Of a stretch of DNA of 64,000 nt, positions 8,835 through 8,985 are shown in pieces. Source of the stretch: a virus (Duplodnaviria > Heunggongvirae > Uroviricota > Caudoviricetes); IMG/VR virus record IMGVR_UViG_3300018430_000002, one strand, 5' to 3'. The stretch's first letter is position 1, and each line of letters begins with the position of its first letter. The notes beneath the pieces were generated by a model that was given only the letters and a program-made list of their open reading frames with translations, was not told where the DNA came from and searched no databases. Made by a program: the position numbers and the translations under genes.

Positions 8835-8985
8835 GTGGAGCCGGCGGACGGACTTGAACCCCCGACCTGTCGCTTACTGGTCACCACGGTAGGACTTGCA
8901 CCTACATTCCTTATCGGTCCTGCCTTACGATTCTACTTGAATTACGTGGTGAAGGCGACTGCTCTACCAACTGAGCTACACCGGC
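8835..8985 (-). tRNA. tRNA-Thr(TGT) interrupted in the anticodon loop by a 74-nt tRNA-like insertion
   Basis: Acceptor GCCGGTG/CGCCGGC plus T plus CCA; D-arm GCTCAGTTGGTAGAGC; anticodon stem GTCGC/GCGAC flanks the inserted segment 8878..8951. Removing the insert gives loop CTTGTAA (UGU). Confidence 0.55.
8878..8951 (-). ncRNA. inserted tRNA-like element (acceptor CACCACG/CGTGGTG-A-CCA, T-arm GTAGG-TGCAAGT-CCTAC, no anticodon stem)
   Basis: Nested inside the tRNA-Thr anticodon loop. Has its own CCA. Confidence 0.4.

Follow-up and report, generated by a model that had tools for sequence, protein, structure and literature searches.

The window analysed here (i.e., the whole 64,000-nt stretch of IMG/VR virus record IMGVR_UViG_3300018430_000002) is part of the genome of a tailed, gut-type phage, and on its minus strand more than 32 tRNA genes form an array (8.5-16.4 kb). 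One member of this array, a tRNA-Thr(UGU) gene at 8985-8836 (150 nt), is split within its anticodon, between bases 34 and 35 (henceforth 34|35), by a 74-nt insert which itself has the outline of a tRNA. An earlier reading made from the sequence alone (henceforth the sequence-only reading) had called this insert a tRNA-like minigene and had suggested that its processing by RNase P and RNase Z would cut the outer tRNA into halves that need rejoining. The parts of the locus are listed below, with sequences given 5' to 3'; labels of the form L150 denote fetched loci, L150 itself being a close relative in which the same gene is uninterrupted.

8952..8985, minus strand: 5' exon of tRNA-Thr(UGU), GCCGGTG TA GCTC AGTTGGTA GAGC A GTCGC CTT, i.e., acceptor strand GCCGGTG, TA, D arm GCTC-AGTTGGTA-GAGC, A26, GTCGC and C32 U33 U34; assigned from the sequence and from ARAGORN with introns allowed, and identical to L150 2593-2668 outside the anticodon arm.
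8878..8951, minus strand: 74-nt tRNA-like intron, CACCACG TA ATTC AAGTA GAAT C GTAAGGCAGGACCGATAAGGAAT GTAGG TGCAAGT CCTAC CGTGGTG A CCA; assigned from sequence and fold, absent from L150.
8951-8945, minus strand: 5' strand of the intron's acceptor stem, CACCACG.
8942-8930, minus strand: D-like hairpin of the intron, ATTC-AAGTA-GAAT, 4 bp.
8929-8906, minus strand: 24-nt segment of the intron, without an anticodon stem.
8905-8889, minus strand: T arm of the intron, GTAGG-TGCAAGT-CCTAC, perfectly paired.
8888-8882, minus strand: 3' strand of the intron's acceptor stem, CGTGGTG, forming a perfect 7-bp stem with CACCACG.
8881 and 8880-8878, minus strand: A73 and CCA of the intron.
8836..8877, minus strand: 3' exon of tRNA-Thr(UGU), GTAA GCGAC AGGTC GGGGG TTCAAGT CCGTC CGCCGGC T CCA, i.e., G35 U36 A37 A38, GCGAC, variable loop AGGTC, T arm GGGGG-TTCAAGT-CCGTC, CGCCGGC, U73 and CCA; identical to L150 from the variable loop on, G-G mismatch included.

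When the insert is removed, the outer gene forms a full bacterial-type cloverleaf: the acceptor stem has 7 bp (one G-U pair among them), the anticodon stem GTCGC/GCGAC has 5 perfect bp, and the two loop remnants join into a 7-nt loop, CTTGTAA, with U33 and the anticodon UGU. The outer T stem contains one G-G mismatch, which is no sign of decay because the uninterrupted orthologue in L150 has the same one. The intact outer stems and the restored loop described in the sequence-only reading are thus borne out by the sequence and by the orthologue, and its span (8835-8985) is right to all but one base, 8835 lying one base past the CCA and the gene ending at 8836.

The 74-nt insert at 8878..8951 is also as described, with its own 7-bp acceptor stem, T arm and CCA, and with no anticodon stem. 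Its ends coincide with those of a mature tRNA: it starts at +1 of the perfect 7-bp acceptor stem, finishes at A73-CCA, and is preceded (position -1) by a U. It has a complete minihelix of the type on which RNase P and RNase Z act, i.e., acceptor (7 bp) and T stem (5 bp) in one stack of 12 bp, with a T loop of 7 nt and a 3' end made up of discriminator base and CCA. As a decoding tRNA it fails on several counts: it lacks an anticodon stem, its D loop (AAGTA) has no GG, and its T loop (TGCAAGT) has G55 in place of U55. A 74-nt RNA without an anticodon arm cannot decode; this part of the earlier description (the word "minigene") is therefore doubtful, and the element looks like a processing handle. 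In the minimum-free-energy fold the inner acceptor stem is stacked on the outer anticodon stem, which is lengthened by pairing between the intron and loop bases. The fold energy itself is unexceptional (z = -1.9 for 151 nt and z = -1.4 for the 74 nt), so the case for more than chance is made by the architecture and by comparison (i.e., the sole tRNA-Thr, the intact relative and recurrence above decoys), as set out below.

Annotation programs handle the locus poorly. ARAGORN in default mode called no tRNA at 8985-8836, and with introns allowed it called a tRNA-Arg(TCT), c[8836,8985], whose 74-nt intron is shifted one base downstream. We rejected this phasing: the orthologue is a tRNA-Thr, position 20 is U while arginine identity needs A20, and an Arg(TCT) gene is already present at 11048-11122. 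It is the comparison with L150 that leads us to prefer tRNA-Thr(UGU) with the boundaries CTT|...CCA|GTAA. Rfam was searched with its gathering scores across the whole window and, for 8500-9300, also with E<=10; the tRNA model RF00005 reached 27.1 bits, under its gathering score of 29, in a match that joins the outer 5' half to the inner T arm, and the E<=10 search gave tRNA matches only, with no other family for the insert.

Three established intron or ribozyme types were considered for the insert and rejected. A group I intron has a core of at least 200 nt (P3-P9), the insert has only 74, and RF00028 gave no match at E<=10. Small self-cleaving ribozymes (hammerhead, twister, pistol, hatchet, HDV-like and others) likewise gave no Rfam match at E<=10, while the same models do pick up a pistol ribozyme in another phage tRNA array (L004 7491-7563, minus strand; 51.5 bits). 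Finally, inspection of the fold speaks against a bulge-helix-bulge intron: the junction consists of the 5-bp stem, 2 bp and 8 bp, with bulges of 3 nt and 2 nt that both lie on the 3' strand.

The most direct evidence on how the gene came to be interrupted is provided by L150, an ENA contig 95-98% identical to the window over about 12 kb (window 1-12000). At the same locus (L150 2593-2668) ARAGORN called an uninterrupted 76-nt tRNA-Thr(TGT), GCCGGTG TA GCTC AGTTGGTA GAGC A GCTGA TTTGTAA TCAGC AGGTC GGGGG TTCAAGT CCGTC CGCCGGC T CCA. The two genomes have identical acceptor stems, D arms, variable loops and T arms and the same flanks on either side, and the sole difference is the anticodon arm, which is GTCGC/GCGAC with CTT[74]GTAA in the window and GCTGA/TCAGC with TTTGTAA in L150. 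As judged from this alignment, two very close genomes are polymorphic for the presence of the 74 nt, and the insert came in together with a different, perfectly complementary anticodon stem. Such a swapped arm is what co-conversion of flanking exon during homing or gene conversion would yield, and the arm GTCGC CTTGTAA GCGAC is also found in other viral tRNA-Thr genes (L028).

Further relatives were sought in several ways. Those identified in IMG/VR through the ClpP protein (L011-L023, at most 69% identical) included four with an array in the scanned stretch (L011, L012, L013 and L016), all of which carry an ordinary tRNA-Thr. A 20-mer from the 5' exon found five loci in IMG/VR, none bearing the 74-nt insert; one of them, L029, has a tRNA-Lys(TTT) (7879-7993, minus strand) with a different, 39-nt hairpin-containing insert after U34. 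A blastn search of GenBank phages (INPHARED) for close relatives returned generic tRNA-Ser matches only, and an exon-anchored pattern had no matches in JGI metagenomes. The same 151 nt are present in an ENA contig of 168,658 bp that has no mismatches to the window over 13,434 nt and that may be the window's own source.

The interrupted gene is the phage's only tRNA-Thr. The 32 array tRNAs called by ARAGORN cover every amino acid but threonine, and no further tRNA was found in the 8 kb past the window's left end. CCA is encoded by 31 of these 32 genes, and neighbours are often only 1-6 nt apart.

Where the insert came from is suggested by the array itself. It is colinear with the phage's own tRNA-Glu(UUC) (15674-15599), with a global alignment score of 23.5 against 1.1 +/- 2.6 (maximum 8.5) for shuffled inserts. 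Identity is concentrated in the T arm (15/17) and in the acceptor 3' strand with ACCA (8/10), and it falls to random level in the anticodon arm (4/17); the acceptor helix is preserved relative to tRNA-Glu through two compensatory pair changes. On this alignment the insert looks like a decayed tRNA copy, nearest to tRNA-Glu, of which only the acceptor/T-arm minihelix with CCA was kept, that is, the minimal structure for RNase P, RNase Z and the CCA-adding enzyme. The "tRNA-like" half of the earlier description therefore stands. An exact 19-mer of the inner T arm found only unrelated T arms in IMG/VR, and blastn of the insert against all fetched loci found T-arm matches only.

We then asked how often this arrangement occurs elsewhere, using two pattern scans of IMG/VR, one of them not selected for CCA. 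We define a nested tRNA as one in which inner +1 and inner CCA abut the outer loop directly, the loop remnants sum to 7 nt and the outer stems are intact; the window gene has all of these features. About ten independent analogues were found in phage contigs, whose inner elements start exactly at +1 and stop exactly at CCA (CCC in L039), without a single additional base:

L039: outer Arg(TCT), inner complete tRNA-Phe.
L071: outer Asn(GTT), inner complete tRNA with CCA.
L108: outer Asn, inner tRNA-Gly with CCA.
L145 and L183: outer Lys(TTT), inner tRNA-Asn with CCA.
L155: outer Glu, inner tRNA-like element.
L163: outer Asn, inner 68-nt armless tRNA-like element with CCA.
L172: outer Gln, inner tRNA-like element.
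L180 and L245: outer Ile(TAT) with two different tRNA bodies, same 70-nt inner element.
L199: outer Ile(TAT), inner tRNA-like element.
L208: outer Asn, inner tRNA-like element.

The insertion sites are 34|35, 35|36 or 36|37, with outer loop remnants that total 7, and the base preceding the insert is U in most cases. A parser that demanded intact inner acceptor, outer anticodon and outer acceptor stems (19 pairs) found the perfect architecture (19/19) in 7 of 237 pattern matches, as opposed to 4 of 4740 decoys; matches at 16-18 of 19 pairs were at decoy level and were left out of the count. In the scan not selected for CCA, three of the four nested cases nevertheless finish in CCA. Among 120 loci matched by the same pattern in bacterial and archaeal genomes, one was a clean case (L362), and its contig also has Band_7 and DUF2828 genes.

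Like the window gene, these nested tRNAs have a +1-to-CCA unit in the anticodon loop with 7-nt remnants, and RNA-repair or DUF2828 genes are often near. They differ in that many contain a complete inner tRNA (Phe, Gly, Asn) that looks functional, the range extending from such tRNAs to armless minihelices such as that of L163, which resembles the window's; the window insert has no sequence homology to any of these inner elements past the generic T arm. Two pairs of cases are informative about history. In L145 and L183, both Lys(UUU)[Asn(GUU)], most stem positions differ and there are compensatory changes in outer and inner stems, which would fit either an old arrangement with both partners under selection or site-specific insertion. 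(A scan for further Lys[Asn] genes with CTTTGGGAANNTAGCT was too unspecific, and nothing was gained from it.) In L180 (6566-6714) and L245 (minus strand; 2972-3119 on the reverse complement), a nearly identical 70-nt tRNA-like intron occupies 36|37 in two tRNA-Ile(TAT) genes that differ entirely in acceptor stem, D arm and T arm, a distribution that points to intron mobility between tRNA genes.

The closest published parallel is found in Lak megaphages, for which Devoto et al. 2019 (Nat Microbiol, PMC6784885) reported "enigmatic" tRNA introns, one of which, in a tRNA-Thr(TGT), was itself predicted to encode a tRNA. These introns are lacking in some close relatives, are offset by one base from the tRNA-finder prediction, and match no Rfam family of their own, the tRNA match inside the Thr intron being the only one; no mechanism was put forward for them (PMC6784885). 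In our own reading of Table S6 of that paper, all four Lak introns consist of a 5' hairpin, an A/T-rich linker, an acceptor stem and T arm, and a CA or CTA end. They thus share with the window an interruption of the anticodon loop of a phage tRNA, a tRNA-like acceptor and T arm, and polymorphism among relatives. The differences are that Lak introns are 79-114 nt long, are placed by tRNAscan after base 36 (37/38 after the authors' one-base offset) rather than at 34|35, and open with an extra hairpin (ACAG...CTGT type) and A/T-rich linker where the window insert is a bare unit with zero flanking bases; the Lak phage also has 540 kb and 26% GC, as against about 169 kb and about 42% GC for the window's phage. 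A literature search for nested or tRNA-like phage tRNA introns found nothing besides this paper. The bare +1-to-CCA tRNA-like intron at 34|35 is a new form of the kind reported in 2019, and given the Lak introns and the many nested tRNAs in IMG/VR, the earlier statement that the architecture is not typical for bacteria or phages was too strong.

Not all interrupted tRNAs in these phages are of the nested type. In the window itself, tRNA-Asp(GTC) (16315-16431, minus strand) has a 42-nt insert in its anticodon stem between bases 29|30, in the context CCG|TAAAAAGAGGGTCTGGTGACAGAGCTTTCAGCAATAGTCTTA|GC ATGTCAA GCCGG. It belongs to a large class of inserts of about 40-46 nt at 27/28 to 29/30, often present in several tRNAs in a row (L040, L045, L046, L069, L114, L140, L149 and many of L030-L149), in which a hairpin of 4-7 bp precedes a conserved [A/T]ACAGCAA[T/A]nTTT. 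Apart from tRNA, nothing in Rfam matched these inserts, and we know of no description of the class. The motif [T/A]ACAGCAA[A/T], with an identical core, recurs in intergenic spacers of the window's array (minus strand near 7319, 8819, 9467, 10680 and 13501); one copy lies 16 nt past the CCA of tRNA-Thr and another is similarly placed after tRNA-Leu(CAA), with the common context AGACAnnTnACAGCAAATAT. The spacer motif could be a processing signal or a promoter.

The genome of the window's phage also encodes proteins of the RNA-repair type. A cluster of such genes, on the strand of the tRNA array, starts in the window and runs leftward past its end (L508 11792-21323), in the order DUF2828/DUF7788, an 818-aa vault-domain protein, RlaP-like, Metallophos, YqeY, a putative RNA ligase and a second Metallophos. 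The members relevant here, together with a cRec gene located in the tRNA array, are:

9987..10316, minus strand: cRec (cREC_REC) protein, in the tRNA array (Pfam PF20274, 67.9 bits, E 1.3e-18).
1932..3434, minus strand: DUF2828/DUF7788 (+vWA) protein (Pfam), first gene of the RNA-repair-type cluster.
1-1644, minus strand, continuing past the left end (L150 11909-14365): 818-aa protein with major-vault-protein shoulder and repeat domains.
L508 17994-19427: putative RNA ligase, 477 aa, located 4.6-6.0 kb beyond the window's left end (contig identical to the window).

The 477-aa protein matches RNA_ligase PF09414 with 30.5 bits (gathering score 27) and, at its N terminus, the PHA02142 OB fold with 24.4 bits, under the gathering score of 27. 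It also has weak PDB matches (E 0.02) to the Naegleria RNA ligase 5cot, an Rnl5-type enzyme that seals 3'-OH/5'-PO4 nicks. On these similarities the protein would be an Rnl5-like ATP-dependent RNA ligase of the 3'-OH/5'-P type. Among the window proteins tested with Pfam, PHROGs and NCBIfam there was no RNA ligase, and no homologue of a splicing endonuclease was found among the proteins tested. Some nested loci have comparable genes: L039 has homologues of the ligase and of RlaP plus a kinase-HD protein, and L071 an ATP-dependent ligase and a DUF2828 gene. The cRec family was predicted by Iyer et al. 2021 (PMC7824862) to be a cyclic-phosphate-processing phosphoesterase linked to RNA ligases. 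The cRec gene is context for RNA end-healing, with a putative role in the 74-nt intron.

The first gene of the cluster stands out by its distribution. Matches to DUF2828/DUF7788 (tblastn) were found in 49 of 387 fetched loci, as opposed to 3 of 120 bacterial-genome loci; 37 of the 49 are among the roughly 120 loci that were chosen only for an insert-bearing tRNA, and one of the three bacterial ones is the sole clean nested tRNA found there (L362). Homologues lie at L071 4374-5852, L163 11089-12684, L183 539-1993 and L362 3700-5241, and in 44 further loci. DUF2828/DUF7788 is thus strikingly associated with insert-bearing phage tRNA arrays, and on this association its product is a candidate accessory factor. 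DUF2828 may be TROVE/Ro60-like; no PDB or Pfam link to TROVE was obtained.

The reading we favour, with a probability of about 0.5, is that the insert is a mobile tRNA-derived intron which leaves the transcript by RNase P cleavage and a cut right after its CCA, the two tRNA halves then being ligated. From the anatomy of the locus, its presence/absence polymorphism, the tRNA-Glu-like origin of the insert, its recurrence in unrelated phages and the ligase and repair genes of the genome, we infer a set of RNA processing steps that includes a post-CCA nuclease and the use of this particular ligase. The array would be transcribed as a precursor, in which RNase P would cut at the inner acceptor's 5' end (U34|C+1), leaving ...CUU-3'OH on the outer 5' half. 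An endonuclease, for which RNase Z or an RNase E type enzyme are candidates, would cut directly after the inner CCA and leave 5'-P-GUAA... on the outer 3' half. The halves would be kept together by the acceptor, D, anticodon and T helices until the phage's Rnl5-like ATP-dependent RNA ligase sealed the nick in the anticodon loop. The predicted products are a normal tRNA-Thr with the loop CUUGUAA and a free 74-nt tRNA-like RNA, and the predicted spliced junction reads ...GUCGCCUUGUAAGCGAC... as a contiguous sequence, or GUCGCCUU|GUAAGCGAC as halves. On the DNA level, the intron would have entered with its flanking anticodon stem through what looks like gene conversion from another tRNA-Thr allele, on the pattern of intron homing.

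The chemistry of the ends is consistent with this. After RNase P cleavage the upstream piece ends in a 3'-OH and the tRNA starts with a 5'-P; after cleavage by RNase Z or RNase E the tRNA ends in a 3'-OH and the RNA that follows it starts with a 5'-P. Cuts at +1 and after CCA would therefore produce U34-3'OH and 5'-P-G35, a substrate of an ATP-dependent RNA ligase rather than of RtcB. Precedents exist for the second cut: the RNase Z of T. maritima cuts right after an encoded CCA (as cited in PMC7479834), and in E. coli RNase E cuts proline tRNAs right after CCA, possibly directed by their unusual C+1 (PMC5291269). The inner element likewise starts with C1-G72. The idea of cutting and rejoining put forward in the sequence-only reading is, in our view, the best-fitting model, because the insert runs from +1 to CCA both here and in about ten analogues and because the genome encodes a ligase of the 3'-OH/5'-P type.

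Several observations nevertheless weigh against excision by RNase P and a post-CCA cut. Both splicing and processing are predictions from the DNA, and for the cut after the inner CCA there are candidate enzymes. The 3' ends of other array tRNAs can be explained by RNase P acting on the next tRNA together with exonuclease trimming, a route that would be unworkable for the insert. With a D loop that lacks GG and a T loop with G55, the inner element may fail to form the tRNA elbow, a contact site of both RNase P and RNase Z. Lak-type introns have an extra 5' hairpin that would not be removed in this way, and the anticodon-stem intron of tRNA-Asp cannot be explained by RNase P and RNase Z, so that a separate splicing machinery may exist. 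The ligase is permissive and not specific, since L011 and L012, with uninterrupted tRNA-Thr genes in the fetched stretches, have it too, and RNA-repair clusters are common in tRNA-rich phages as counter-defence. Lastly, the intron-containing and intron-free alleles are so close (95-98%) that purifying selection is not measurable, and a recent inactivating insertion is possible.

This last point is the core of an alternative in which a degenerate tRNA copy or mobile element has recently killed the tRNA-Thr gene, nothing is rejoined and the host's tRNA-Thr is used. The intact gene in L150 implies a recent insertion and makes selection on the interrupted allele impossible to show, default tRNA finders reject the locus, tRNA and nuclease genes are gained and lost fast among close relatives, and removing any exact insertion will always restore the loop. 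Set against this are the ends of the insert, which fall exactly on +1 and CCA here and in about ten independent cases, and the loss of an anticodon arm in an element whose acceptor and T arm were kept with compensatory changes. The diverged loci L145 and L183 moreover hold outer and inner stems intact in the same nesting, and the gene hit would be the sole Thr tRNA of an otherwise complete set. Weighing these, we consider simple inactivation unlikely.

A second alternative, which we also judge to be improbable, replaces RNase P and RNase Z by a dedicated and so far unrecognised phage-linked splicing machinery. Its endonuclease would leave 2',3'-cyclic phosphate and 5'-OH ends, which cRec, Metallophos or a kinase would heal before the ligase joined them, and the DUF2828/DUF7788 protein might act as an RNA-binding platform. 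Such a machinery would account for the second intron type (42 nt, with hairpin and ACAGCAA, in tRNA-Asp 16431-16315), which RNase P and RNase Z could not excise. It would also give a task to the cRec gene in the array and the two Metallophos genes, end-healing being superfluous for the products of RNase P and RNase Z, and it would fit the way in which DUF2828/DUF7788 adjoins insert-bearing arrays (49/387 vs 3/120 loci). Yet the insert has no bulge-helix-bulge motif and the proteins tested include no splicing-endonuclease homologue, defence against host anticodon nucleases would account for the repair genes just as well (PMC7824862), and the acceptor/T-arm minihelix, the CCA and the zero flanking bases would all be left unaccounted for.

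It is also conceivable, but very unlikely, that the 150-nt or the 74-nt RNA is itself functional, as a tRNA mimic, a Y-RNA-like partner of the DUF2828 protein (should the latter be TROVE-like) or a decoy for host anticodon nucleases, and is no source of tRNA-Thr. The DUF2828/DUF7788 and major-vault-domain genes lie 5-7 kb away, TROVE proteins partner with tRNA-like RNAs (PMC7824862), and a second odd tRNA-like element with a capped acceptor stem is found about 30 nt downstream (see below). L150, however, has the same protein genes and no insert, and the precise siting in the anticodon loop of many different tRNAs would be left unexplained. For a TROVE likeness of DUF2828, as said, no PDB or Pfam link was obtained. 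An assembly artefact or chimera, which the sequence-only reading had named as a possible refutation, has next to no credibility: the assembly is of the metagenome type and the ENA contig that matches it over 13,434 nt without a mismatch may be that same assembly, but the insertion is exact and its flanks are clean, the exchanged anticodon stem pairs perfectly, many unrelated contigs and the curated Lak genomes show the same architecture, and a sequence look-up reported 7 further similar places.

Excision by RNase P and a post-CCA cut would combine features of several known systems. The protein-spliced introns of archaea and eukaryotes are also short, non-catalytic and located in the anticodon region, they need an endonuclease and a ligase, and they too lengthen the anticodon stem by pairing with loop bases; they differ in using a bulge-helix-bulge at 37/38, cut by the splicing endonuclease and sealed by RtcB or Trl1, where the window's tRNA-Thr, which belongs to a virus of bacteria and for which no splicing endonuclease was seen, has no such motif and is interrupted at 34|35, and in having cyclic phosphate/5'-OH ends where 3'-OH/5'-P ends are predicted here. 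Group I introns of bacterial and phage tRNAs share with the window insert the anticodon loop, mobility, co-conversion of flanking exon and the proximity of homing nucleases (PD-(D/E)XK or other), and differ in having a ribozyme core, the insert being a 74-nt tRNA fold. tRNA-like handles (e.g., MALAT1 mascRNA, mitochondrial tRNA punctuation or tRNA-gRNA arrays) recruit RNase P and RNase Z to cut longer transcripts, and in T4-type repair (polynucleotide kinase and Rnl1) phage ligases seal breaks in the anticodon loop. In the window these two principles would be combined, with the difference that the flanking RNA which is released and rejoined is itself a tRNA. To our knowledge, a combination of tRNA-like handle and ligase for tRNA splicing has not been described.

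More generally, and with clearly more doubt than for the single locus, we tentatively propose that tailed phages have a protein-dependent form of tRNA splicing, built from RNase P, a post-CCA cut and a phage 3'-OH/5'-P ligase, in which the introns are (decayed) tRNAs. Such introns could spread as mobile elements: a mature tRNA might be ligated into an anticodon loop opened by a nuclease and then be reverse-transcribed, or nucleases might drive gene conversion. A gene for an RVT_1 reverse transcriptase and one for a protein with a DGR-type (diversity-generating retroelement) Mtd_N domain lie a few kb from nested tRNAs in L208 (648-1868) and L180 (11761-12981); these are single cases, and any bearing on an origin of nested tRNAs through an RNA intermediate is speculative. 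As far as we know, protein-dependent tRNA splicing is by textbook account absent from bacteria and their viruses, with self-splicing group I introns the only accepted tRNA introns. If the proposal is right, it would add a third way of splitting and rejoining a tRNA, one that uses universal cell enzymes together with a phage ligase for anticodon-loop repair, and it would be a natural counterpart of the tRNA-flanked processing used in synthetic biology. It would explain the "enigmatic" Lak introns, and it would mean that standard annotation systematically overlooks phage tRNAs (here the sole tRNA-Thr). One transcript could then give two tRNAs, the interrupted anticodon loop could shield the gene or pre-tRNA from homing nucleases or host anticodon nucleases, and the evolution of tRNA arrays would be tied to conflicts over mobile elements and anti-defence.

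By comparison with L150, the surrounding array is clearly a zone of turnover. The Arg(ACG) and Pro(UGG) tRNA genes of the window are absent from L150, a 3-kb, three-gene indel lies at L150 6679-9660, and L150 carries at 1463-1903 a second copy of a PDDEXK_5 gene, at an array site where the window has none. The PDDEXK_5 product of the window is a possible homing-type nuclease that could drive the turnover of tRNA alleles. About 30 nt downstream of tRNA-Thr lies a tRNA-like element (8728-8805, minus strand) that is kept in L150. It matches the Rfam tRNA model with 52 bits over model positions 6-65 only and has a D arm, an anticodon arm (loop CTCTGAC) and a T arm; its acceptor 5' strand AACCTG pairs with an upstream CAGGTT (hairpin CAGGTT-GTAT-AACCTG), and TTTTT follows the T arm. 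In effect this is a tRNA shape whose acceptor end is capped. Other features of the window are:

10744-10836, minus strand: suppressor tRNA(CUA), 93 nt (ARAGORN).
12506..12916, minus strand: free-standing PDDEXK_5 (PD-(D/E)XK) nuclease in the array (Pfam PF11645, 72.9 bits).
47703-49445: terminase.
49827-51425: portal protein.
57766-58827: capsid-type protein.

The last three genes identify the window as part of a tailed-phage genome. The late structural genes (45435-60702, plus strand) form a contiguous array of open reading frames (ORFs) only if TAG is read as sense, and the early and tRNA-side genes mostly use the standard code. These traits fit those of large recoded crAss-like phages as given by Yutin et al. 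(bioRxiv 10.1101/2020.07.20.212944).

Inserts of other kinds were seen in further phage tRNAs. Coordinates of such insert-bearing genes are L010 700-825, L007 5320-5423, L010 1748-1850 and L001 3273-3373 (minus strand). The inserts observed include one of 51 nt in a tRNA-Asn, with a T-arm-like GAGAG-TGCAAAT-CTCAC, a conserved 30-nt insert (ACTATGATGGTAAATGACACCGTAAAAGTG) in two tRNA-Phe genes, and a hairpin in the D loop of a tRNA-Thr(GGT). The array of L054 contains a ROOL RNA (3148-3722, 323 bits) and a group I intron (1871-2055, 58 bits).

Finally, about 17 kb of the window (roughly 27000-45000) are without long ORFs, whether read in the standard code or with any single stop-codon reassignment. 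Within this region, at about 32-44 kb, GC is raised to 0.45-0.52 and AT skew lies between -0.12 and -0.21, and at 33552-33693 (minus strand) there are two adjacent weak tRNA-like matches of 30 bits each, without anticodon arms, which ARAGORN merges as one intron-containing tRNA. There may be a link between this stretch and the "unknown forms of gene disruption" noted in zeta crAss-like phages (bioRxiv 10.1101/2020.07.20.212944).

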